Shown here: one piece after another, positions 3,856 through 41,738 of the stretch | Layout: every line of letters starts with the position of its first letter | Position numbering within the stretch: position 1 is the first letter of the stretch | Assembly (NCBI RefSeq): GCF_044647545.1 | Contig: NZ_CP172818.1 | Strand: one strand, 5' to 3' | Length of the DNA: 64,000 bases | Origin: Escherichia coli | GTDB taxonomy: Bacteria > Pseudomonadota > Gammaproteobacteria > Enterobacterales > Enterobacteriaceae | Position numbers and translations under genes: made by a program | The notes under the pieces: model-generated | The model's input: only the letters and a program-made list of their open reading frames with translations | Database searches by the model: none | Told to the model about the DNA's origin: nothing

Positions 3856-4550
<695 letters not shown>

Positions 4551-4653
4551 AACCCGCCGATTGCGCTACAATGCCCGCCCTTAAAGTGGGGGCACTCCCC
4601 TAACCGCTTCATCAGGTGAAGCGGATCTGACCTGTCATCAGAACGAGAGAATT

Positions 4654-6015
4654 ATGTTTAAACCGGAACTCCTTTCCCCGGCGGGAACGCTGAAAAATAT
4701 GCGTTACGCTTTCGCTTATGGCGCAGATGCTGTTTATGCGGGCCAGCCGCGTTACTCCCTGCGTGTGCGCAACAACGAATTCAACCACGAAAATCTTCAG
4801 CTCGGCATCAATGAAGCCCACGCGCTGGGGAAAAAGTTTTATGTCGTGGTCAACATTGCACCGCACAACGCCAAGCTGAAAACCTTTATCCGTGACCTGA
4901 AACCGGTGGTGGAGATGGGGCCGGATGCGCTGATTATGTCCGATCCAGGGCTGATTATGCTGGTGCGCGAGCACTTCCCTGAAATGCCGATCCACCTCTC
5001 GGTGCAGGCTAACGCCGTGAACTGGGCGACGGTGAAATTCTGGCAGCAAATGGGACTGACCCGCGTGATCCTCTCTCGCGAGCTGTCGCTGGAAGAGATT
5101 GAAGAGATCCGTAATCAGGTGCCGGATATGGAGATCGAGATCTTCGTTCACGGTGCGCTGTGCATGGCCTACTCCGGTCGCTGCCTGCTCTCTGGCTATA
5201 TCAACAAGCGCGACCCGAACCAGGGCACCTGCACCAACGCCTGCCGCTGGGAGTACAACGTCCAGGAAGGGAAAGAAGATGACGTTGGCAACATCGTGCA
5301 CAAGTACGAGCCGATTCCGGTGCAAAATGTTGAGCCGACGCTGGGCATCGGCGCGCCAACCGACAAAGTGTTTATGATCGAAGAAGCTCAGCGTCCGGGC
5401 GAGTATATGACTGCGTTTGAAGATGAGCACGGCACTTACATCATGAACTCGAAAGATCTGCGCGCTATCGCCCACGTTGAACGCCTGACCAAAATGGGCG
5501 TGCATTCGCTGAAAATCGAAGGTCGTACAAAATCTTTCTACTATTGCGCACGCACCGCGCAGGTTTACCGTAAAGCTATCGATGACGCAGCTGCGGGAAA
5601 ACCATTCGATACCAGCCTGCTGGAAACTCTGGAAGGTCTGGCGCATCGTGGCTATACCGAAGGTTTCCTGCGTCGTCATACTCACGACGATTATCAGAAC
5701 TACGAATACGGTTATTCAGTTTCTGACCGCCAGCAGTTTGTTGGTGAGTTTACCGGTGAGCGCAAGGGCGACCTCGCGGCGGTAGCGGTGAAAAATAAAT
5801 TCTCCGTTGGCGACAGCCTTGAGCTGATGACGCCGCAAGGGAACATTAACTTTACCCTTGAGCATATGGAAAACGCCAAAGGCGAAGCAATGCCGGTCGC
5901 ACCGGGCGATGGTTATACTGTGTGGATCCCGGTCCCGCAGGATCTTGAGCTAAATTACGCGCTGCTGATGCGTAATTTCTCCGGGGAAACCACGCGTAAC
6001 CCCCACGGTAAGTGA
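4654..6015 (+). CDS. yegQ: Peptidase U32-family protein YegQ (TrhP, tRNA ho5U34 hydroxylation)
   Basis: 453 aa; U32 family features including conserved Cys cluster (CMAYSGRCLLSGY ... CTNACRW); recognised as YegQ. Confidence 0.9.
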   Translation: MFKPELLSPAGTLKNMRYAFAYGADAVYAGQPRYSLRVRNNEFNHENLQLGINEAHALGKKFYVVVNIAPHNAKLKTFIRDLKPVVEMGPDALIMSDPGLIMLVREHFPEMPIHLSVQANAVNWATVKFWQQMGLTRVILSRELSLEEIEEIRNQVPDMEIEIFVHGALCMAYSGRCLLSGYINKRDPNQGTCTNACRWEYNVQEGKEDDVGNIVHKYEPIPVQNVEPTLGIGAPTDKVFMIEEAQRPGEYMTAFEDEHGTYIMNSKDLRAIAHVERLTKMGVHSLKIEGRTKSFYYCARTAQVYRKAIDDAAAGKPFDTSLLETLEGLAHRGYTEGFLRRHTHDDYQNYEYGYSVSDRQQFVGEFTGERKGDLAAVAVKNKFSVGDSLELMTPQGNINFTLEHMENAKGEAMPVAPGDGYTVWIPVPQDLELNYALLMRNFSGETTRNPHGK

Positions 6016-6099
6016 TTAATTTCGATTATTTTTCCCGGATGGAAAATTCTTAGAAACCGATCACATACAGCTGCATTTATTAAGGTTATCATCCGTTTC

Positions 6100-6190
6100 G
6101 CTGAAAAACATAACCCATAAAATGCTAGCTGTACCAGGAACCACCTCCTTAGCCTGTGTAATCTCCCTTACACACACGGGCTTATTTTTT
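6100..6190 (+). ncRNA. cyaR: Hfq-dependent, CRP-activated small RNA CyaR (RyeE)
   Basis: Near-exact match to remembered CyaR sequence (GCTGAAAAACATAACCCATAAAATGCTAGCTGTACCAGGAACCACCTCCTTAGCCTGTGTAATCTCCCTTACAC...GGGCTTATTTTTT) ending in hairpin plus U-tract; located just after yegQ as expected. Confidence 0.85.
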
Positions 6191-6348
6191 ATGCATAAGC
6201 CCTATCTCTGGTAACCGTCTTCCATTGACCACATCGATAGAATCCTCCTTCATAGCACGATGCCTTTCACTTATCGGCATCGTGCTCCCACAGGTTCCGG
6301 CTACGCACAGCCAGAACGCGCATGTTTGACGCTTACCAAAAAATATTC

Positions 6349-6666
6349 TCACTCTCCACATTTGAATGTCAGACGAGCGACGCCATGTAATCCTGCACCT
6401 TCTGTCTTCAGGTCAACTATCTGCATTTTTTTTCCCTGAGTAACACAGAAATGAGCTGCATCATTTTTTACTATATTTTCTGCACCAGAAATTCTGCCCC
6501 TGGCTAAAGAAGCTTCGGCTTCGGTGTAGTATTGGTTATCGAGTTTACGCTGAATATTACTTTTATATGCAAGGCCAAATTTACCGATACTTGTCTCATC
6601 ATTATGCACAGCACAACCAGACATAAGAAAAACACTAATTAATGATATAGCAGCTATCTTTTTCAT
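6349..6666 (-). CDS. yegR: Small lipoprotein YegR
   Basis: 105 aa from internal Met (MKKIAAISLISVFLMSGC: signal peptide plus lipobox); ORF-track start at 6726 is a likely over-extension. Confidence 0.75.
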   Translation of the reverse strand: MKKIAAISLISVFLMSGCAVHNDETSIGKFGLAYKSNIQRKLDNQYYTEAEASLARGRISGAENIVKNDAAHFCVTQGKKMQIVDLKTEGAGLHGVARLTFKCGE

Positions 6667-7080
6667 CTTACCTTCCCCCATTAAATACCAACGACACGCT
6701 CTGGTGTTTAAATATAATAATGGCATGATTATTATATTTGAATAGGATTATAATAAATGTTCTGTACAACATTTCCTACATAAGTAGGAATTACAGACAC
6801 GGATGCCCTTCCGGGTAACCCCATGGGGGGGTTAATATATTTTTAATAGTATATTGAAGATGCCACTGTTTAGTTGAATATTAGGTATATGCTCTTTTTT
6901 GAAATTTATCGGTGGCTGCCGTTAGTATTCGCTGTCCCCATTGCAAGCTCCTGGTGGTAACCACTGAATCTTCCATACTTGAACTGACTTTTTATCCTCC
7001 GACTTTCATCCTGTTCTGACTCTACCTTTTCTTTTCTGCTCTACACTATCTACAGACCAATCATAAAGGCACATACGATC

Positions 7081-7980
7081 ATGGCAGAATTTCCCGCCAG
7101 CTTACTGATTCTTAATGGCAAAAGTACTGACAATCTACCCCTGCGCGAAGCAATTATGCTGTTGCGTGAGGAAGGAATGACGATCCATGTGCGGGTCACC
7201 TGGGAGAAAGGCGATGCCGCACGATATGTAGAGGAGGCCCGGAAGTTGGGCGTCGCAACGGTGATTGCCGGTGGTGGCGATGGCACCATTAATGAAGTTT
7301 CTACGGCGTTGATTCAGTGTGAGGGGGATGACATACCCGTGCTGGGAATTTTGCCATTAGGAACCGCCAATGATTTTGCCACCAGTGTAGGGATTCCTGA
7401 GGCACTGGATAAGGCGCTGAAACTGGCAATTGCCGGTAACGCCATTGCGATAGATATAGCGCAGGTCAACAAACAAACCTGTTTTATTAATATGGCGACA
7501 GGCGGATTTGGGACGCGTATTACCACAGAAACGCCGGAAAAATTAAAAGCCGCGCTGGGTGGCGTCTCTTACATCATTCATGGCTTAATGCGCATGGATA
7601 CTCTGCAACCGGACCGTTGTGAAATCCGCGGTGAAAACTTTCACTGGCAAGGTGACGCCCTGGTCATTGGTATTGGTAACGGGCGTCAGGCCGGTGGCGG
7701 TCAACAATTGTGCCCGAACGCGTTAATTAACGATGGCTTGCTGCAACTGCGCATTTTTACCGGCGATGAAATTCTTCCGGCTCTCGTATCAACCTTAAAA
7801 TCTGACGAAGATAACCCGAATATTATCGAAGGCGCTTCGTCGTGGTTTGATATACAAGCCCCACACGAAATCACTTTTAATCTTGATGGCGAACCGTTGA
7901 GCGGACAAAACTTTCATATTGAAATACTTCCGGCGGCGTTGCGTTGTCGATTACCACCGGATTGTCCATTATTGCGTTAA
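7081..7980 (+). CDS. yegS: Lipid kinase YegS (DAG-kinase catalytic-domain family)
   Basis: 299 aa; diacylglycerol-kinase-like motif ([13 protein letters not shown]); recognised as YegS. Confidence 0.9.
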
Positions 7981-8014
7981 TCAAACTATTCTCTCTTGAA
8001 CCAGGGAAAATCCG

Positions 8015-8051
8015 TAATGCCGGATGCGGTGTAAACAACTTATCCGGCATA
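8015..8051. repeat. REP (repetitive extragenic palindromic) element
   Basis: Palindromic GCCGGATGCGGTGTAAACAACTTATCCGGCATAC motif between the convergent yegS and gatR. Confidence 0.6.
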
Positions 8052-8061
8052 CAGAACAATA

Positions 8062-8841
8062 CTACACCGTAATTAATTTCACTCGTGTCTTCTGCAATGC
8101 CAGTTTATCCACCTCTGACACAGCATCGTCGGTAATAATAATGTCAATTTTTTCGATTGGCAGTACCTGATTAAAACCGCGACGATTAAATTTCGATGAA
8201 TCGAGAACGGCAATCACTTTATTTGCGGCTGTGACCATCGCCCCGCTAATCGAATAGCCTTCATTAAAGGTCGTAATACCATTAACCGCATCAATACCAT
8301 CAGCACCGACAAACATTAAATCGGCATTAATATCCTGCAATGAACGCTCAGCAATGGAGCCATGCATCGAGCGCGTTTTATGGCGGACCGTGCCACCGCA
8401 GACGACCAGAGTAATGTCTTTATTTTCGGAAAGGGCAAATGCTGCCGGGAGACTGTTGGTAATCACCGTGATATTTTTGGCGGTCATTAATCCTTCGGCG
8501 ATAAGCATTGTCGTACTTCCGCTGTCGAGAATAACGGTCATCCCTTCGTGGATCATTTTGACTGCCGCCTGCGCTATTCTGTTTTTTGGCGCGCTGGCGA
8601 GCTGAAATCGCTCTTTAAACCCGACTTCCTGGGTCTCGGTTTCACTATTACCGGACATTATTTTCGCCGCACCGCCATGAAAGCGCGTAACCACGCCTTT
8701 TTGTTCGAGAAAGCGCAAATCGGCACGGATTGTCGCTTCCGAGGCAGCAAATACTCCCGCCAGATCCTGAACAAGCACGGTTCCCTGTTCATTCACTAAT
8801 TGGATGATCTTATTCCTTCGCTCGAATGAATTCATCGTCAT
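8062..8841 (-). CDS. gatR: DeoR-family repressor GatR of the galactitol operon, intact
   Basis: 259 aa uninterrupted; N-terminal HTH, C-terminal DeoR sugar-binding domain; directly upstream of gatD on the same strand. Confidence 0.88.
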   Translation of the reverse strand: MTMNSFERRNKIIQLVNEQGTVLVQDLAGVFAASEATIRADLRFLEQKGVVTRFHGGAAKIMSGNSETETQEVGFKERFQLASAPKNRIAQAAVKMIHEGMTVILDSGSTTMLIAEGLMTAKNITVITNSLPAAFALSENKDITLVVCGGTVRHKTRSMHGSIAERSLQDINADLMFVGADGIDAVNGITTFNEGYSISGAMVTAANKVIAVLDSSKFNRRGFNQVLPIEKIDIIITDDAVSEVDKLALQKTRVKLITV

Positions 8842-8940
8842 TTACCCATATTCAATTGTGGCTAGTGTAAACGAAGGGGGACCATTGGTGAATGATCTGT
8901 TTTGCACAATACCGGGCCAGCATCACGCTGGCCCGCGGTT

Positions 8941-9981
8941 TCAGGGAATGAGCAACACTTTGCCCGGCATAGCATTACGAGCGATGTCACGCACCGCCTG
9001 GGCGAAGCTTTCAAAGCTTCCACGGTGAGCGATTAATGGCTCCAGGCTTAACTTACGTTCTGTCAGCAACCGGCTCGCCGTTTCCCACTCCTGCCCCGGC
9101 CAAGGGCTGGAGTAGTTCATCCAACTGCCGATAACCGTCAGCTCTTTACGCAATATTTTGCCAAACGTTGCCGATGTTAAATGCAGATCCTGATGCAACG
9201 TGCCCACCAGCGCCAGCTGGGCATGAGGCCCGGCAATCTCTACCGCCAGTTCGACGGTTTGCGGGACGCCAGCCGTCTCGAGGATAAGCTGATTAAAGCG
9301 CAGCTCGCGTAAAACGCCCTGCATTTGCGGCGCGCTCATTTCAAGGCTGTTAAATGTTTGCATCGCACCGAAAGATTTTGCCAGTGCCAGTTTTTCTGAG
9401 CTAATGTCGATAGCCGTCACACTCTTTGCTCCCAGCGCGACAGCGCACTGAATGGCCAGCAGGCCAATGGTTCCGGCACCAATAATAATAACGTTTTTAT
9501 TCTCACAACCTTGCGCTAAATGAAAAGCATGCAGGCCAACGGTAATCGGTTCAATAAAAGCCCCTTCCTCAATAGGCATATCCGCAGGTAGAGCAAAGAC
9601 ATTTTTCCGCTTAACGACAATATATTCGGCAACCCCACCATCACGCCGTGAGCCAATAAAATCATATTTTGCGCACTGGGAATAAAACCCTTTCAGACAC
9701 TCTGGACAAGTAAAACAGGGTAATAACGGCACACAGGCAACCGCATCGCCAGGATGTAAATCATCAACACCGGATCCCACCGCATCAATATAGCCGCTAA
9801 ATTCATGGCCTAACGTTATTGGATAATAATGTGCACCATTTTTAAATATCCTGGGTAAATCGGAACCACATACGCCCGAGCTGGCAATTTTTACCCGCAC
9901 CTCATCCTGATGATTAATTTCAGGAATGACTCGTTCTTCAACGCGCACGATACCATCAGTATCATTCACCACTGATTTCAT
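8941..9981 (-). CDS. gatD: Galactitol-1-phosphate 5-dehydrogenase (Zn-dependent)
   Basis: 346 aa; MDR/Zn-ADH motifs (GHEFSG, Cys cluster CFTCPEC, Rossmann GAGTIG). Confidence 0.92.
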   Translation of the reverse strand: MKSVVNDTDGIVRVEERVIPEINHQDEVRVKIASSGVCGSDLPRIFKNGAHYYPITLGHEFSGYIDAVGSGVDDLHPGDAVACVPLLPCFTCPECLKGFYSQCAKYDFIGSRRDGGVAEYIVVKRKNVFALPADMPIEEGAFIEPITVGLHAFHLAQGCENKNVIIIGAGTIGLLAIQCAVALGAKSVTAIDISSEKLALAKSFGAMQTFNSLEMSAPQMQGVLRELRFNQLILETAGVPQTVELAVEIAGPHAQLALVGTLHQDLHLTSATFGKILRKELTVIGSWMNYSSPWPGQEWETASRLLTERKLSLEPLIAHRGSFESFAQAVRDIARNAMPGKVLLIP

Positions 9982-10029
9982 AAAAACTCCTGATTGGTTA
10001 AGGGGGATATTCTCCCCCTCAGGTAAAAA

Positions 10030-11385
10030 TTATTCTGCGAGAACGGCTTTCTCTTGTTTGGTAAAGCCGCGCGCTCTACGCCAGGTCATGAAAATACCGG
10101 TGAGATAAATGACGCCGATAATAATGAAACCGGGAATATTTTGCGGGGAGAAAACCTGAATCAGTAACCAGGTAATAGGAGAACCGCCCTGATCCATTGA
10201 AGCCACCATACCCCCGGCTTTTAACGCCCCAGCATTAGCCGCCAGTTGGGTGTGCAAACCAATAGTTTGCGTCGCGATCCACAGGGTGATGCTCATAATG
10301 ATGACACCCGAGATTAAGGTGCGGAACAGATTTCCACGATGCACCGCGACCGCCATCGCCACGAAGAAGCCGATAGTTGCAAGATCGCCAAACGGCAGCA
10401 CCTGATTACCCGGAACACAAACAGCAATTAAAATGGTGAGAGGGATAAAAATCAGGCTTGCCGATACCACCGCCGTATGCCCCAGCAACAACGCCGGATC
10501 AAGGCCAATCAGGAACTCCTGACCGCCGAACTTCGCCTGTAAACGACTACGGGCCTGCTTAGCGATGGGCGTTAAACCATCCATGATAGGTTTAATCACC
10601 CGTGGCATCAGCAGCATAACTGCCGCCGTTTTTACCGCCAGCTGCAATACACCTTTGACATCGTAACCCGCAAGGATGCCGATAATCAGCCCCATCACAA
10701 AACCCACGGTGACCGGTTCGCCAAAAGGGCCAAATTTGCGCTGAATATCATCGGCGCTAAATTTAATTCGGTTAACGCCTGGGATTTTCTCGATGATAGC
10801 ATCGACCAGCACCGCAATCGGCCCCATATACGCCGACGTACCGTGCGGAATAGCAATGCCTTCCAGCTCAAAGAAATTTCGGGTATCGCGGGCAAACCAG
10901 TCGCCGAGCTTATAAACAAACGCCGCGTGAATTACCACACCCGCCATCCCTATCATCCATGAACCGGTTGCCAGATGCAGCAACGCGCCGGTGAAGGTCA
11001 TATGCCAGATATTCCAGATATCAACATTTACCACCCGCGTCATACGGGTCAGTAACATCGCCACGTTAACCAGAATCGCAATCGGAATCGCCACCAGCGC
11101 AATTTGCGACGCCCAGGTCATGGGTGAAGAGCCCGGCCAGCCGACATCGACCACATGCAGATTCAGGTCGAAATTTTCCGCCATCGCTTTCGCCGCCGGA
11201 CCAATGGAATCCAGCATTAAGCCAATCACAAGGCCAATGCCAACAAAGCCAATCCCGATATGCAGACCCGCTTTAAAGCAATCGCCTGCCTTCATGCCTA
11301 ATATTTTAGAAAAAATAATGATGACAATCGGCAGCATCACCGTAGGGCCGAGGTCGAGAATATAACGCATGACTTCTGAAAACAT
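10030..11385 (-). CDS. gatC: PTS galactitol-specific EIIC
   Basis: 451 aa polytopic membrane protein within gat operon order. Confidence 0.92.
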   Translation of the reverse strand: MFSEVMRYILDLGPTVMLPIVIIIFSKILGMKAGDCFKAGLHIGIGFVGIGLVIGLMLDSIGPAAKAMAENFDLNLHVVDVGWPGSSPMTWASQIALVAIPIAILVNVAMLLTRMTRVVNVDIWNIWHMTFTGALLHLATGSWMIGMAGVVIHAAFVYKLGDWFARDTRNFFELEGIAIPHGTSAYMGPIAVLVDAIIEKIPGVNRIKFSADDIQRKFGPFGEPVTVGFVMGLIIGILAGYDVKGVLQLAVKTAAVMLLMPRVIKPIMDGLTPIAKQARSRLQAKFGGQEFLIGLDPALLLGHTAVVSASLIFIPLTILIAVCVPGNQVLPFGDLATIGFFVAMAVAVHRGNLFRTLISGVIIMSITLWIATQTIGLHTQLAANAGALKAGGMVASMDQGGSPITWLLIQVFSPQNIPGFIIIGVIYLTGIFMTWRRARGFTKQEKAVLAE

Positions 11386-11388
11386 AGG

Positions 11389-11673
11389 TCACCCCTGTAA
11401 GATAGTCAGAATTTTATTTTGTAATGCTTCGATACCGACACCAGAAACAAAAGGCATGCCGTGAACTAACGGAATATTGCCAAAACTACGATCCACCCTG
11501 GCAGTGGTGCATATCAAATGCACGCCATCCATATAGGTTTCTATTTCATTAACCCGACACTGGATTAATTCAACCGGAATATTATGACTCTGACACAACT
11601 CTTTAATTTCTTCCGCCGCCATCGTAGAGGTCGCAACCGCACCTCCGCAAGCGACAATAATTTTGCGTTTCAT
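11389..11673 (-). CDS. gatB: PTS galactitol-specific EIIB
   Basis: 94 aa; active-site Cys near N-terminus ([12 protein letters not shown]). Confidence 0.92.
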
Positions 11674-11703
11674 AAATAGTCCTTTTCATTGTTACAGAGG
11701 GAT

Positions 11704-12156
11704 TTATTCGTCTGAATCTAAAACATACTTTGTGAAGTATTCCTTTAACTGGGTTTCAGGAAGAGTGATTAGTGTCTCGACGATATAGGGCTGTTGTAAC
11801 TTGCCAAATAAACAGCGTAAAAGTTTCAATTGCTGCTGCGGATTTTCCACAATCAACGCAATAACCAACGATACCGCCACGTCGTTATCATCATCCGCTT
11901 GCTGAAAATGAACTTTATTTGTTGGCCTTAACAGATAAATGGCTGACGACTTAGCATGAATCGCCTCACAATGCGGTATTGCAATGGCGTGCTGCTCAAG
12001 CATTATCCCGGTAGGGAATTCTGCTTCTCTGGCAATTAATGCCTGTGGCCAGGTATCATGAACCACACCTTTCGCGAGCATCTCATTACCGATATGGGTT
12101 AAAACTTCGCTACGATCGACAAAAGAAATTCCGCTACGAACAAACAGGTTAGTCAT
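11704..12156 (-). CDS. gatA: PTS galactitol-specific EIIA
   Basis: 150 aa; EIIA mannitol/fructose-type fold, operon position. Confidence 0.92.
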   Translation of the reverse strand: MTNLFVRSGISFVDRSEVLTHIGNEMLAKGVVHDTWPQALIAREAEFPTGIMLEQHAIAIPHCEAIHAKSSAIYLLRPTNKVHFQQADDDNDVAVSLVIALIVENPQQQLKLLRCLFGKLQQPYIVETLITLPETQLKEYFTKYVLDSDE

Positions 12157-12165
12157 ATATCGTCC

Positions 12166-14365
<2,200 letters not shown>

Positions 14366-14420
14366 TCAAATGTCGAGATAACGATCACAAAAACGACAAT
14401 GTGAAAATTAATCAGAATGA

Positions 14421-14452
14421 CAGGCAAAAAAAACGGCCTCCCGGGGAAGCCG
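14421..14452 (-). terminator. Rho-independent terminator downstream of fbaB
   Basis: On minus strand: CGGCTTCC-CCGG-GGAGGCCG hairpin followed by T8. Confidence 0.6.
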
Positions 14453-14536
14453 TAACGAAGTGCGCGTGTTTTTATGCCGGATGCAACGTAAACGCCTTTT
14501 CTGTCCTACGGGGTGGTGCTGTTCATATGAGGCGCA

Positions 14537-15589
14537 TCAGGCGATAGTAATTTTGCTATCGAGATAAACGTCCTGTACGGCGTTAATCAGTTTCACGCCG
14601 TCAGCCATCGATTTCTTGAAGGCCTTACGTCCAAGAATCAGCCCCATTCCGCCTGCGCGTTTGTTGATAACCGCAGTACGCACTGCATCGCTGAGGTCAG
14701 TTTCACCGCCTGCAGCACCGCCGGAGTTTATCAACCCGGCCCGGCCCATATAGCAGTTAGCTAACTGATAACGCACCAGGTCAATCGGGTTTTCACTGGT
14801 CAGTTTGCTGTAGACTCGATCGTCGGTATAACCGTAATTAATCGCTTTATAGCCGCCGTTATTTTCCGCCATTTTTTGTTTGACGATATCTGCACCTATG
14901 GTTGCCGCCAGATGGTTCGCCTGACCAGTCAGGTCGGCGGAAACATGGTAATCAACGCCATCTTTCTTAAAGGCGGAGTTACGCAAATAGGCCCACAGCA
15001 CTGTCACCATGCCCAGCTCGTGCGCACGTTCAAAAGCCGCAGAAATTTCTTCAATCTGGCGACGTGACTCTTCCGAGCCAAAATAGATAGTCGCCCCAAC
15101 CGCCACCGCGCCCATATTGAACGCCTGCTCCACGCTGGCATACAGCGTTTGATCGTAGGTATTCGGGTAACTTAGCGTCTCGTTGTGATTAAGTTTGACG
15201 AGGAATGGAATGCGATGCGCGTAACGCCGCGATACCGATGCCAGCACGCCGTAAGTTGACGCCACACAGTTACAGCCCGCTTCGATCGCCAGTTCAACAA
15301 TGTTTTTCGGGTCAAAGTAGAGCGGGTTAGCGGCAAATGAAGCTCCGGCAGAATGCTCAACGCCCTGGTCAACCGGCAGAATAGAAAGATATCCTGTGCC
15401 AGCCAGACGCCCGGTGTTGTACAACGTCTGCATATTACGTAACACCGCTGGCGGGCGATTATTGTCAATCATCACGCGGTCTACGTAGTCATGTCCGGGG
15501 AGATAAAGCTGGTCAGAAGGAATAGTCATACAACGGTGCTGTAAAAGGTTGTCGGCGTCTTTGCCAAGCAACTGCGCAATATCTGTCAT
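14537..15589 (-). CDS. fbaB: Fructose-bisphosphate aldolase class I (FbaB)
   Basis: 350 aa from [16 protein letters not shown]; DhnA-type class I aldolase; ORF-track start (15661) over-extended by 24 codons. Confidence 0.9.
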
Positions 15590-15845
15590 TACTATGCTCC
15601 CGTAAATTCCGATTGGATATCGGCTATGGATTGTCCTGGCCCGCCTTTTGCGGGCAATCATAATCCTGGTCGTTACGGGCGAGTTTTTCCATCTTTTGGA
15701 TGTTTTTTCAGCGTTTTCTGTTGGCTCGATTCATCAGAAAAAATGTTACCGCGGTCAAGTTTTCACCGCAAAGGTATTTGAAAGGTATTATTAAGTGGTA
15801 TTGTCATCGCGTACCTTACATTACCTGTCATGAAGGAATTAAAAG

Positions 15846-17123
15846 ATGAAAACAACAGCAAAGCTGTCGTTCATGATGTTTGTTGAATGGTTTATCTGGG
15901 GCGCGTGGTTTGTGCCATTGTGGTTGTGGTTAAGTAAAAGCGGTTTTAGTGCCGGAGAAATTGGCTGGTCGTATGCCTGTACCGCCATTGCGGCGATCCT
16001 GTCGCCGATTCTGGTTGGCTCCATCACTGACCGCTTTTTCTCGGCACAGAAAGTGCTGGCGGTATTGATGTTCGCTGGTGCGGTGCTGATGTATTTCGCC
16101 GCGCAACAGACCACTTTTGCCGGGTTCTTCCCGTTACTGCTGGCCTACTCGCTAACCTATATGCCGACCATTGCGCTGACTAACAGTATCGCTTTTGCCA
16201 ACGTGCCGGATGTGGAGCGTGATTTCCCACGCATTCGTGTGATGGGGACTATCGGCTGGATTGCCTCTGGTCTGGCATGTGGATTCTTGCCGCAAATGCT
16301 GGGTTATGCCGATATCTCACCGACGAACATCCCGCTGCTGATTACTGCCGGAAGTTCTGCTCTGCTTGGTGTGTTTGCGTTTTTTCTGCCCGACACGCCA
16401 CCAAAAAGCACCGGCAAAATGGATATTAAAGTCATGCTCGGCCTGGATGCGCTGATCCTGCTGCGCGATAAGAACTTCCTCGTATTTTTCTTCTGTTCAT
16501 TCCTGTTTGCGATGCCACTGGCGTTCTATTACATCTTTGCCAACGGTTATCTGACCGAAGTTGGCATGAAAAACGCCACTGGCTGGATGACGCTCGGCCA
16601 GTTCTCTGAAATCTTCTTTATGCTGGCATTGCCGTTTTTCACTAAACGCTTTGGTATCAAAAAGGTATTGTTGCTTGGTCTAGTCACCGCTGCGATCCGC
16701 TATGGCTTCTTTATTTACGGTAGTGCGGATGAATATTTCACCTACGCGTTACTGTTCCTCGGTATTTTGCTGCACGGCGTAAGTTACGATTTTTACTACG
16801 TTACCGCTTACATCTATGTCGATAAAAAAGCTCCCGTGCATATGCGTACCGCCGCGCAGGGGCTGATCACGCTCTGCTGCCAGGGCTTCGGCAGTTTGCT
16901 CGGCTATCGTCTTGGCGGTGTGATGATGGAAAAGATGTTCGCTTATCAGGAACCGGTAAACGGACTGACTTTCAACTGGGCCGGGATGTGGACTTTCGGC
17001 GCGGTGATGATTGCCATTATCGCCGTGCTGTTCATGATTTTTTTCCGCGAATCCGACAACGAAATTACGGCTATCAAGGTCGATGATCGCGATATTGCGT
17101 TGACACAAGGGGAAGTTAAATGA
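15846..17123 (+). CDS. yegT: Nucleoside:H+ symporter-family MFS transporter YegT
   Basis: 425 aa, 12 predicted TM helices, NupG/XapB-like. Confidence 0.88.
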   Translation: MKTTAKLSFMMFVEWFIWGAWFVPLWLWLSKSGFSAGEIGWSYACTAIAAILSPILVGSITDRFFSAQKVLAVLMFAGAVLMYFAAQQTTFAGFFPLLLAYSLTYMPTIALTNSIAFANVPDVERDFPRIRVMGTIGWIASGLACGFLPQMLGYADISPTNIPLLITAGSSALLGVFAFFLPDTPPKSTGKMDIKVMLGLDALILLRDKNFLVFFFCSFLFAMPLAFYYIFANGYLTEVGMKNATGWMTLGQFSEIFFMLALPFFTKRFGIKKVLLLGLVTAAIRYGFFIYGSADEYFTYALLFLGILLHGVSYDFYYVTAYIYVDKKAPVHMRTAAQGLITLCCQGFGSLLGYRLGGVMMEKMFAYQEPVNGLTFNWAGMWTFGAVMIAIIAVLFMIFFRESDNEITAIKVDDRDIALTQGEVK

Positions 17124-18124
17124 AAACAGAACGTATTCTCGGTGCTCTTTATGGGCAGGCGTTAGGGGATGCGATGGGGATGCCCTCCGAGCTTTGGCCA
17201 CGCAGCCGCGTTAAAGCACACTTTGGCTGGATTGATCATTTTCTGCCTGGACCAAAGGAGAATAACGCGGCCTGTTATTTTAACCGCGCCGAATTCACCG
17301 ACGATACCTCGATGGCGCTGTGTCTGGCGGATGCGTTACTGGAACGTAAAGGCAAGATCGATCCGGATCTGATTGGGCGTAATATTCTCGACTGGGCGCT
17401 GCGTTTCGACGCCTTTAACAAAAACGTACTAGGTCCGACCTCGAAGATTGCGCTTAACGCCATTCGCGACGGTAAACCCGTTGCTGAACTGGAAAATAAC
17501 GGCGTGACCAACGGCGCAGCGATGCGCGTCTCGCCATTAGGTTGTTTGCTTCCGGCGCACGATATTGACTCTTTTATTGATGATGTGGCGCTGGCCTCCA
17601 GCCCGACACATAAATCCGATCTGGCGGTTGCGGGGGCGGTAGTCATCGCATGGGCGATTTCTCGTGCCATTGACGGAGAAAGCTGGTCAGCGATTGTTGA
17701 TTCACTGCCTTCAATTGCGCGACATGCTCAACAAAAACGCATCACTACCTTCAGCGCCTCACTGGCAGCACGTCTGGAGATTGCGCTGAAAATTGTGCGC
17801 AATGCCGATGGCACCGAATCCGCCAGCGAACAGCTTTACCAGGTCGTTGGCGCAGGTACCAGCACTATTGAGTCCGTTCCGTGCGCCATTGCGCTGGTTG
17901 AACTGGCACAAACCGACCCGAACCGTTGCGCCGTCCTGTGCGCTAACCTTGGCGGCGACACAGACACCATCGGTGCTATGGCGACGGCAATTTGTGGCGC
18001 GTTGCATGGCGTTAACGCTATCGATCCTGCGTTAAAGGCGGAACTGGATGCAGTAAATCAGCTTGATTTCAACCGCTATGCCACGGCGCTGGCGAAGTAT
18101 CGCCAACAACGGGAGGCGATATGA
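17120..18124 (+). CDS. yegU: ADP-ribosylglycohydrolase-family protein YegU
   Basis: 334 aa; ARH family N-terminal signature (GALYGQALGDAMGMP ... DDTSMAL); start overlaps yegT stop (ATGA). Confidence 0.88.
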   Translation: MKTERILGALYGQALGDAMGMPSELWPRSRVKAHFGWIDHFLPGPKENNAACYFNRAEFTDDTSMALCLADALLERKGKIDPDLIGRNILDWALRFDAFNKNVLGPTSKIALNAIRDGKPVAELENNGVTNGAAMRVSPLGCLLPAHDIDSFIDDVALASSPTHKSDLAVAGAVVIAWAISRAIDGESWSAIVDSLPSIARHAQQKRITTFSASLAARLEIALKIVRNADGTESASEQLYQVVGAGTSTIESVPCAIALVELAQTDPNRCAVLCANLGGDTDTIGAMATAICGALHGVNAIDPALKAELDAVNQLDFNRYATALAKYRQQREAI

Positions 18125-19086
18125 GCGGCGCTCGATTACACACGCTGCTGCCTGAATTAGCCACGCGTCAGCCGGTGATGGTCGTCGGCGCGGCGGTCAT
18201 TGATGTGATCGCCGACGCTTATGCCCTCCCCTGGCGTGGGTGCGATATCGAACTGAAACAGCAGAGCGTTAACGTTGGCGGCTGTGCACTGAATATTGCC
18301 GTGGCATTAAAGCGCCTCGGCATCGAAGCGGGTAATGCCTTGCCGCTCGGTCAGGGGGTGTGGGCGGAGATTATTCGCAACCGGATGGCAAAAGAGGACT
18401 TAATCAGCCTGATCGATAACGCCGAAGGTGATAACGGCTGGTGTCTGGCGCTGGTTGAGCCGGATGGCGAACGCACTTTTATGTCATTCAGCGGTGTGGA
18501 AAATCAGTGGAATCGCCAGTGGCTGGCGCGATTAACCGTTGCGCCTGGCAGCCTGCTCTATTTTTCCGGTTATCAACTGGCCTCGCCCTGCGGCGAATTG
18601 TTAGTGGAATGGCTGGAAGAGCTGCAAGACGTGACGCCATTTATCGATTTTGGCCCACGTATTGGCGATATCCCGGATGCATTACTGGCGCGGATCATGG
18701 CCTGTCGACCTTTAGTGTCACTCAATCGTCAGGAGGCTGAGATTGCCGCCGAACGTTTTGCTTTATCCGCAGAGATAACAACACTAGGCAAGCAATGGCA
18801 GGAGAAATTTGCTGCGCCGTTGATCGTTCGTCTCGATAAAGAGGGCGCATGGTATTTCAGCAACGACGCTTCTGGCTGCATTCCGGCATTTCCAACGCAA
18901 GTTGTAGACACCATTGGGGCGGGCGACAGTCATGCCGGCGGCGTACTTGCCGGGCTGGCCTCTGGTCTGCCACTGGCGGATGCCGTATTACTGGGCAATG
19001 CAGTGGCGTCGTGGGTTGTCGGGCATCGGGGCGGTGATTGTGCGCCAACGCGCGAGGAACTACTCCTCGCACACAAAAACGTATAG
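18121..19086 (+). CDS. yegV: PfkB/ribokinase-family sugar or nucleoside kinase YegV
   Basis: 321 aa; PfkB C-terminal motif (DTIGAGDSHAGG); start overlaps yegU stop (ATGA). Confidence 0.88.
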   Translation: MSGARLHTLLPELATRQPVMVVGAAVIDVIADAYALPWRGCDIELKQQSVNVGGCALNIAVALKRLGIEAGNALPLGQGVWAEIIRNRMAKEDLISLIDNAEGDNGWCLALVEPDGERTFMSFSGVENQWNRQWLARLTVAPGSLLYFSGYQLASPCGELLVEWLEELQDVTPFIDFGPRIGDIPDALLARIMACRPLVSLNRQEAEIAAERFALSAEITTLGKQWQEKFAAPLIVRLDKEGAWYFSNDASGCIPAFPTQVVDTIGAGDSHAGGVLAGLASGLPLADAVLLGNAVASWVVGHRGGDCAPTREELLLAHKNV

Positions 19087-19806
19087 ATCGCTGCGACAGT
19101 GGCTGATGCTGTACTCAATAGGCCGTTGCTGTTGGTCAAGCGCCACTTGCTTGATCACCAGCACCGGTACTTTGCTATCTAACTGAATATGTGACTGAAA
19201 CTCGGCATCCGGCATCCGGGCGCTAACGCGGGAACGCGTACGTTGTGGGTAAATGTGCTGGCTGCGGAAGTAGTCATAAAGAGAAATTCCGATGGCATCA
19301 ACATCATGAATTAAATGCGCCGGAACCCACGATTCCTCAATCGATACCGCTTCTTCATCGACATAGCGAATACGCTTAAGCAAAAAGACATCACTTCCCG
19401 CTTCGACCGCCAGCTGCTGCGCAACTTCTTCGGGACATTTCACGACACGCTTGTTAACCCATAGCGTATCGGGCTTTTTCCCGCGCAATACCACCTGCTG
19501 AGAAAAACCTCGCGCTTCTTTCAACGAGTATTCGAAGATGTTGTTGATCTGCGTACCGTAACCACGCGAACGCGTCACCACGCCCTCTTCTTCCAGCGCC
19601 TGCATCGCCTTGCGCACCGTAATGCGCGAAACGCCGGTTAACTGACTTAAATCACGCTCACCGGGCAAAATATTGCCATGCTCCAGCACCCCGCTGCGCA
19701 CGGCATTTTTTACCGTTTCGGCAAACTTAATATAAAGCGGCGTGTTATCCGCCGCTAAAATACGTTCGTTCAGTTGGGCAATCAGCTGGGTATGCGCTTG
19801 TTCCAT
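19060..19806 (-). CDS. yegW: GntR/HutC-family transcriptional regulator YegW
   Basis: 248 aa; N-terminal GntR wHTH (PGERDLSQLTGVSRITVRKAM), C-terminal UTRA domain; convergent with, and overlapping, yegV 3' end. Confidence 0.88.
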   Translation of the reverse strand: MEQAHTQLIAQLNERILAADNTPLYIKFAETVKNAVRSGVLEHGNILPGERDLSQLTGVSRITVRKAMQALEEEGVVTRSRGYGTQINNIFEYSLKEARGFSQQVVLRGKKPDTLWVNKRVVKCPEEVAQQLAVEAGSDVFLLKRIRYVDEEAVSIEESWVPAHLIHDVDAIGISLYDYFRSQHIYPQRTRSRVSARMPDAEFQSHIQLDSKVPVLVIKQVALDQQQRPIEYSISHCRSDLYVFVCEE

Positions 19807-41304: not shown

Positions 41305-41469
41305 CTTTATTAAAGGGGGAAACGGTATTCCCCTTTAGATGTGTTTTATTTTCCCGTTACTCAAAAAAATAAATAAACCGAAAAAAAGCCACTAATAGCT
41401 CCAGTACGGAAATAAGCAGGGTTAATTTTTTGTCAGTGTGTCCATCCCTTCTCTTTATAAAGGAGGGCA

Positions 41470-41560
41470 ACACCACTTTTTACCTACCCCCCCCTTTATT
41501 TTTTTTATTCGAACCATTTCCCCCCCGAAGGCCCCCCCCCCCCCCCCCCAACCCTTGAAA
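41470..41560. other. Anomalous low-complexity stretch with poly-C (17 nt), poly-T and C-rich runs; probable sequencing/assembly artefact
   Basis: Direct reading: ...tacctacccccccctttattttttttattcgaaccatttcccccccgaaggcccccccccccccccccaaccc...; same character as the 3856-4550 anomaly. Confidence 0.55.
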
Positions 41561-41704
41561 TGGGTTCGATCCGGCGCAACGTCCCAACAGTCAGGATTAT
41601 AAATCTCATTATCTTAATTGCAACGGGGTCCACCGATGGTTATAATTCGTTCGTTGGAACACGATGTTGCACAGGCCGTGGTGTTAGGCCTGAAAGTAGT
41701 AAAT

Positions 41705-41738
41705 AAAAGAACCTGCCTCACCAGCAGGTTTTTTTATT
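41705..41738 (+). terminator. Rho-independent terminator-like hairpin upstream of yehL
   Basis: AACCTGC-CTCACCA-GCAGGTT followed by T7; ~110 bp upstream of yehL start. Confidence 0.55.

Follow-up and report, generated by a model that had tools for sequence, protein, structure and literature searches.

The window, a stretch of 64,000 nucleotides of Escherichia coli DNA, contains a complete gatYZABCD-gatR locus, whose features are collected in Table 1. The gatR gene lies directly downstream of gatD, between yegS and gatD as in MG1655, HS and NCM3722, and it forms the 3' end of the gat cluster on the same strand as gatYZABCD. The list of open reading frames of the window contains a single ATG-start frame at this place, 259 aa long and without an internal stop; the end coordinate of the frame counts the stop codon. 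The translation of this maximal frame opens with MTMNSF, and its N-terminus reads MTMNSFERRNKIIQLVNEQ. A second ATG, at 8835, is the RefSeq start in identical genes and gives a protein of 257 aa (WP_001295426.1), which is the annotation in five complete genomes (FDAARGOS_497, strain 746, HS, ECONIH1 and NCM3722). A Shine-Dalgarno-like GGGT motif is found about 8 nt 5' of the second ATG and is too near the first. Public databases hold both the 257-aa and the 259-aa forms of GatR under the name "DeoR family galactitol utilization operon repressor", and a public database protein match placed the exact protein on at least 1000 contigs.

Table 1. Features of the gat locus and its surroundings, in positions of the window.
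Feature	Position	Strand	Description
CyaR/RyeE sRNA	6098-6187	plus	
gatR coding sequence	8062-8841	minus	maximal ORF, 259 codons plus stop
DeoRC domain of GatR	8128-8589	minus	C-terminal sensor/effector domain; PF00455, residues 85-238, E=2.5e-51
GTC triplet	8537-8539	none	target of IS3E in K-12; codons 101/102, in the sensor domain; duplicated in K-12, single here
HTH_DeoR domain of GatR	8662-8820	minus	N-terminal; PF08220, residues 8-60, E=1.3e-16
gatD-gatR intergenic region	8842-8940	minus	hairpin, possible weak promoter, candidate operator
Possible weak gatR promoter	8892-8887 and 8869-8864		predicted; TTCACC, 17-nt spacer, TACACT
Candidate gatR operator	8888-8906		predicted; overlaps the -35
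Candidate operator box TGATCTGTTTTGCA	8893-8906		overlaps the -35 of the possible weak gatR promoter
GC-rich hairpin	8913-8935		9 bp, after the gatD stop
gatD	8941-9981	minus	galactitol-1-phosphate 5-dehydrogenase, 346 aa, intact, F117V
gatC	10030-11385	minus	PTS galactitol IIC, 451 aa, intact
gatB	11389-11673	minus	PTS IIB, 94 aa
gatA	11704-12156	minus	PTS IIA, 150 aa
gatZ	12166-13428	minus	tagatose-bisphosphate aldolase subunit, 420 aa
gatY	13457-14311	minus	tagatose-bisphosphate aldolase, 284 aa from the annotated start
gatY promoter/operator region	14312-14420	minus	presumed GatR target; putative function
Candidate operator, second TTTGTTTTC copy	14327-14335		
Candidate operator TGATTTGTTTTCAA	14356-14369	plus	
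Candidate operator TGATTAATTTTCAC	14401-14414	minus	inverted partner of TGATTTGTTTTCAA

The protein has the two domains of the DeoR/GlpR family. The N-terminal HTH_DeoR domain scores 60.5 bits against a Pfam cut-off of 21 and the C-terminal DeoRC domain 174.2 bits against a cut-off of 31.8; these domain scores put the ORF far above chance. The sole PDB relative by sequence is the C-terminal domain of E. coli DeoR (7L6L, E=1.9e-11). The preliminary description of this DNA had presented gatR as an intact DeoR-family gene of 259 aa, and the one unbroken ORF with both DeoR domains bears this out. The gene is real and ordinary: it is the uninterrupted repressor gene of the E. coli galactitol operon, already known.

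All six structural genes of the operon are full length, have no internal stops and differ little or not at all from their counterparts in close relatives. The MG1655 reference record, besides gatR::IS3E, also marks gatC as a pseudogene (4922-6279 of the MG1655 stretch compared); the gatC of the window is intact. The one residue that stands out is at position 117 of GatD (codon 117, window 9631-9633, minus strand), which is V in the window and F in MG1655, HS, NCM3722, FDAARGOS_497 and strain 746. This position falls within a DGGFAEY stretch that is otherwise identical in the five E. coli strains compared. Since an exact 61-mer carrying the F117V codon is common to 11 complete genomes, ECONIH1 among them, the substitution is, judged from these matches, a real clade marker.

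We then compare the gene with its disrupted counterpart. The annotation of MG1655 treats gatR (b4498) as a pseudogene, split into two fragments by IS3E, with insE5 and insF5. Direct reading of the junctions in a K-12 derivative revealed an IS3 of 1258 bp, flanked on either side by a duplicated GTC, with the ends TGATCTTACCCAGCAA... and ...TTACGTGGGTAGGATCA. The annotation and the junctions together confirm the statement of the preliminary description that gatR of K-12 is disrupted by an insertion sequence. Across the same point the window runs from ...AATAACGGTC straight into ATCCCTTCG..., with the target triplet in single copy and no IS; the site reads AATAACGGTCATCCCTTCG, with GTC once. When the IS and one copy of GTC are removed from the K-12 gene, the encoded GatR is identical to that of the window in 259 of 259 aa. 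The nucleotide sequences differ at 16 of 780 positions, all of them third codon positions and all synonymous, and this 16:0 ratio of synonymous to replacement changes indicates purifying selection. Thus, the alignment with K-12 gatR that had been proposed as a check yielded no amino acid difference and so no inactivating mutation. The same holds for the other sequences in the comparison: a search for an inactivating point mutation found 0 amino acid differences from the ancestral K-12 protein and from those of HS, NCM3722, FDAARGOS_497, strain 746 and ECONIH1. MG1655 and the window therefore share the yegS-gatR-gatD locus, the protein that remains after IS excision (259/259) and 141 identical nt upstream, whereas MG1655 carries the 1258-bp IS3E in codons 101/102 together with a gatC pseudogene, and the gatR of the window is uninterrupted and differs by the 16 synonymous changes.

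We asked how common each state of the gene is, using a 961-nt query spanning gatR against 5426 complete E. coli genomes. The query was matched in 5109 of them, and in 4756 the locus was uninterrupted, which we scored as one match at a single site over 80% or more of the query length. A second query of 120 nt across the gatR/IS3 junction was fully covered in 345 of the 5426 genomes; the three junction-bearing genomes among the matches listed, ER1709, K1508 and TOP10, are laboratory K-12 derivatives. The remaining genomes gave either some other partial match to the gatR query (about 8) or none (317). Since 4756 of 5426 genomes have an uninterrupted locus as against 345 with the K-12 junction, intact gatR is the norm of the species, found in about nine in ten sequenced E. 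coli, and the disruption in K-12 is a lesion of that lineage.

The preliminary description had concluded from the intact gatR that the strain is not a K-12 derivative. The conclusion stands on other evidence: the window is 96.6-97.5% identical to MG1655 over about 12.7 kb of the locus (2.5-3.4% diverged), and it lacks the ogrK/P2 remnant of K-12. The gap between yegQ and yegR (6016-6348) measures 333 nt in the window and contains only CyaR, whereas that of K-12 measures 959 nt and contains ogrK and a P2 late-control-D remnant. The sequence is essentially that of ECONIH1, whose complete genome matches window positions 4545-19661 without a mismatch, the only differences being two small indels that lie outside gatR. 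An intact gatR does not by itself carry the conclusion. NCM3722, a K-12 strain, also has an uninterrupted gene for this protein (WP_001295426.1), in agreement with PMC3045373, so that an intact gene is insufficient as evidence, and we rejected it as proof, of non-K-12 origin. NCM3722 differs from the window in having the K-12 nucleotide allele of gatR and the ogrK/P2 remnant between yegQ and yegR. The gatR::IS3E junction, none of which was found in the window, is likewise a marker of K-12 of the MG1655/W3110 type and not of all K-12.

The consequences of the K-12 lesion are documented. The insertion in gatR results in constitutive gat expression (PMC10878103; PMC4072538), and gat expression is higher in MG1655 than in NCM3722 because gatR is disrupted in MG1655 only (PMC3045373). 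The earlier statement that K-12 expresses gat constitutively is made in these three papers, in PMC5850726 and in a 2026 bioRxiv preprint, which calls the K-12 element IS3E (bioRxiv 10.64898/2026.01.05.697630). The allele most informative for the window is that of E. coli HS. Sousa et al. put the gatR sequence of HS in place of the pseudogene of MG1655, and the resulting strain regulated its gat operon (PMC5850726). In mice, constitutive mutants arose from MG1655 carrying HS gatR by fresh insertions of IS elements into the gene, and constitutive K-12 lost gat function (PMC5850726). In the wild strains LF82 and CFT073, CRISPRi silencing of gatR gave a strong signal, which the authors read as gatR holding the operon repressed there, and it was beneficial to both strains in the gnotobiotic gut (bioRxiv 10.64898/2026.01.05.697630). 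In a direct comparison, the GatR proteins of the window and of HS are identical in 257 of 257 aa and have the same accession, WP_001295426.1; the genes differ by 16 synonymous nucleotides. Since it is identical to HS GatR, which was validated in MG1655, the GatR of the window matches a protein shown to repress. The likeness stops upstream of gatY, where HS has a 78-bp REP-like insert and several SNPs in the promoter region relative to the window. A more distant parallel is GatR of Salmonella Typhimurium, which represses gat promoters and requires its helix-turn-helix to do so (PMC7972205 and its reference 29); it belongs to another species with another locus organisation, and it is likened to the GatR of the window by description. 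We can soundly infer that galactitol catabolism in the source strain would be repressible, because the allele is identical in protein to that of HS, the six structural genes are full length and the regulatory regions have no private change.

The two regulatory regions of the locus differ in how much they vary. Upstream of gatR, a segment of 141 nt that runs from the last part of gatD across the intergenic region into gatR (8820-8960) does not differ between the window, HS and MG1655 (100% identity). This invariance, in spite of differences of 2-3% in the coding sequence and the flanking genes, contrasts with the variable gatY promoter region (14312-14440). When the 129 nt upstream of gatY in the window were compared with other genomes, 94 were at least 99% identical and 3688 only 90-95%. 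In an alignment of ten E. coli alleles, there is good conservation of the promoter core, from AATTTTCA up to the ATG, and each minority base of the window also occurs in other natural strains; strains sharing the core variants of the window include NC101, 95JB1, K99B and O157 TR01. Relative to K-12 and HS the core has four substitutions, two of them within a candidate operator. Between fbaB and the gatY promoter, K-12 and HS have a 78-nt REP-like element that the window lacks (14480-14490); its insertion site lies upstream of the fbaB terminator, outside the core of the gatY promoter.

Within the gatY region there are a CRP-like TGTGA-N6-TCTCG and two sigma-70-like hexamer pairs scoring 9/12, and the candidate operators overlap both pairs. 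The possible gatR promoter scores 8/12, under the threshold of the scan. A degenerate 14-mer motif has three of its four matches in the whole window within the gat promoters (about 230 bp); since these two regions also supplied the motif, the enrichment is circular and the motif is a candidate only. A looser 16-mer common to both promoter regions showed no enrichment across the window (4 matches, with 2.84 expected). The sequence TTTGTTTTC occurs twice in the window, both times in the gatY promoter, and 28 of 100 shuffles also reach two matches. A sigma-70 scan of the region found sites at a level not above that of shuffled sequence (9 found, 10.1 expected), and the sigma-70 and terminator scans together gave nothing over the shuffle expectation save a clear fbaB terminator. 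The stem of this terminator has a 1-nt deletion in a C-run at 14443 relative to ECONIH1 and FDAARGOS_497. We infer the positions of the operators and promoters, and the identity of the inducer, with these results in mind; the operator and promoter assignments are weak, since the motif is circular, the looser motif is not enriched and the promoter scan is at the level of shuffles.

With these candidate sites the locus would work as follows. In the absence of galactitol, GatR would bind AT-rich operators in the gatY promoter (candidates at about 14327-14414), and this binding would hold gatYZABCD off. GatR probably also binds the candidate operator overlapping its own weak promoter (about 8888-8906), which would amount to autoregulation. 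Once galactitol is taken up by the GatABC PTS, a phosphorylated intermediate of the pathway would bind the sensor domain and the repressor would be released; that the effector is such an intermediate is presumed by analogy with other DeoR-family regulators.

It could be that galactitol regulation is altered in spite of an intact gatR, being leaky, constitutive or non-inducible, through lineage-specific polymorphisms of the gatY promoter/operator region or through GatD F117V. The unusual variability of the gatY promoter region (94 genomes at 99% or more, 3688 at 90-95%) speaks for such a change, as do the four core substitutions relative to K-12 and HS, with two in a candidate operator, and the confinement of F117V to 11 complete genomes. 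If F117V impaired the dehydrogenase, the galactitol phenotype would be altered independently of GatR. Against this, all variant bases of the promoter core are found in other natural strains, GatR and its own upstream region are invariant, and the change from F to V is conservative, the allele persisting in a clade whose members come from clinical and environmental sources. We consider altered regulation improbable. Its more specific form, in which the minority gatY allele and GatD F117V of the ECONIH1-like clade would shift the set-point of induction or the handling of galactitol-1-phosphate while GatR remains canonical, is an equally long shot; if true, this would be natural variation in the regulation of a locus on which selection in the gut is known to be strong and fluctuating.

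An assembly error that collapsed or skipped an IS in gatR would produce the same uninterrupted sequence, and the window does contain faulty stretches: compared with close relatives, those at about 3905-4545 and about 41335-41555 have broken down into junk rich in homopolymers, so that the window is not equally reliable throughout. Around gatR, the picture is different. Positions 4545-19661 correspond to ECONIH1 with 0 mismatches, the two small indels lying outside the gene; gatR is identical to those of FDAARGOS_497 and strain 746 in 780 of 780 nt; and at the target there is one copy of GTC and no IS end sequence. On the strength of the match to ECONIH1 we rejected a hidden IS, for which there is hardly any chance left.

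The degraded stretches merit a description of their own. The first, between yegP and yegQ, starts as a recognisable parD with growing errors, passes into runs of poly-G, poly-A and poly-C (G27, A28, A18 and others) and returns to a perfect match at about 4545; strain 746, FDAARGOS_497 and ECONIH1 have an intact ParD/ParE type II toxin-antitoxin pair at this place. It looks like corrupted or low-quality sequence and not biology. The second, between yehK and yehL, has scattered errors, runs of poly-C (C18) and poly-T, and is about 31 nt shorter than its counterpart in FDAARGOS_497. It lies next to a clean OrzO-P antitoxin RNA (41660-41735), on the side where the zorO toxin would be expected in a locus built like known zor-orz loci. 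Both stretches fall on toxin-antitoxin loci, and the gat region is unaffected. A smaller difference lies in the 3' terminator stem of CyaR, where the window has a 4-nt ACAC insertion at 6170-6173 relative to ECONIH1 (CCTTACACACACGGGC versus CCTTACACGGGC). The comparison with FDAARGOS_497 has a 4-nt offset that matches it in size. The insertion is slippage in an AC repeat, either a real variant or an error.

That the ORF is another DeoR-family paralogue, of the AgaR or SrlR type, is almost certainly wrong: these two are the best NCBIfam models for the protein and no GatR-specific model is in the list, but both scores are under the curated cut-offs (232.9 bits against 260 for the AgaR equivalog NF040755, 226.3 bits against 350 for the SrlR equivalog NF007753), the protein is identical to K-12 b4498 GatR and the gene lies within the gat locus, and we rejected the assignment on the cut-offs and synteny. 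AgaR and SrlR, which are DeoR-family repressors of sugar-alcohol or amino-sugar genes in E. coli, share the two-domain architecture with GatR, and their models align over the full length; with scores under the equivalog cut-offs, they are paralogues of the GatR of the window and different regulators.

By its domains, its identity to b4498, its locus and its identity to a validated allele, the gene belongs to the DeoR/GlpR family and is GatR. We put at roughly 0.93 the probability that 8062-8841 holds the uninterrupted wild-type gatR gene of an E. coli outside K-12, with essentially the sequence of ECONIH1, encoding a repressor of this family that has a helix-turn-helix at its N-terminus and a sugar-phosphate sensor domain at its C-terminus. 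The K-12 reference is atypical at gatR, and departures from K-12 are not to be taken as special features of another strain. The strain of the window carries the ancestral, regulated galactitol configuration, as most E. coli do, which is of little significance in itself; the gatR state of a strain is useful background for colonisation experiments.
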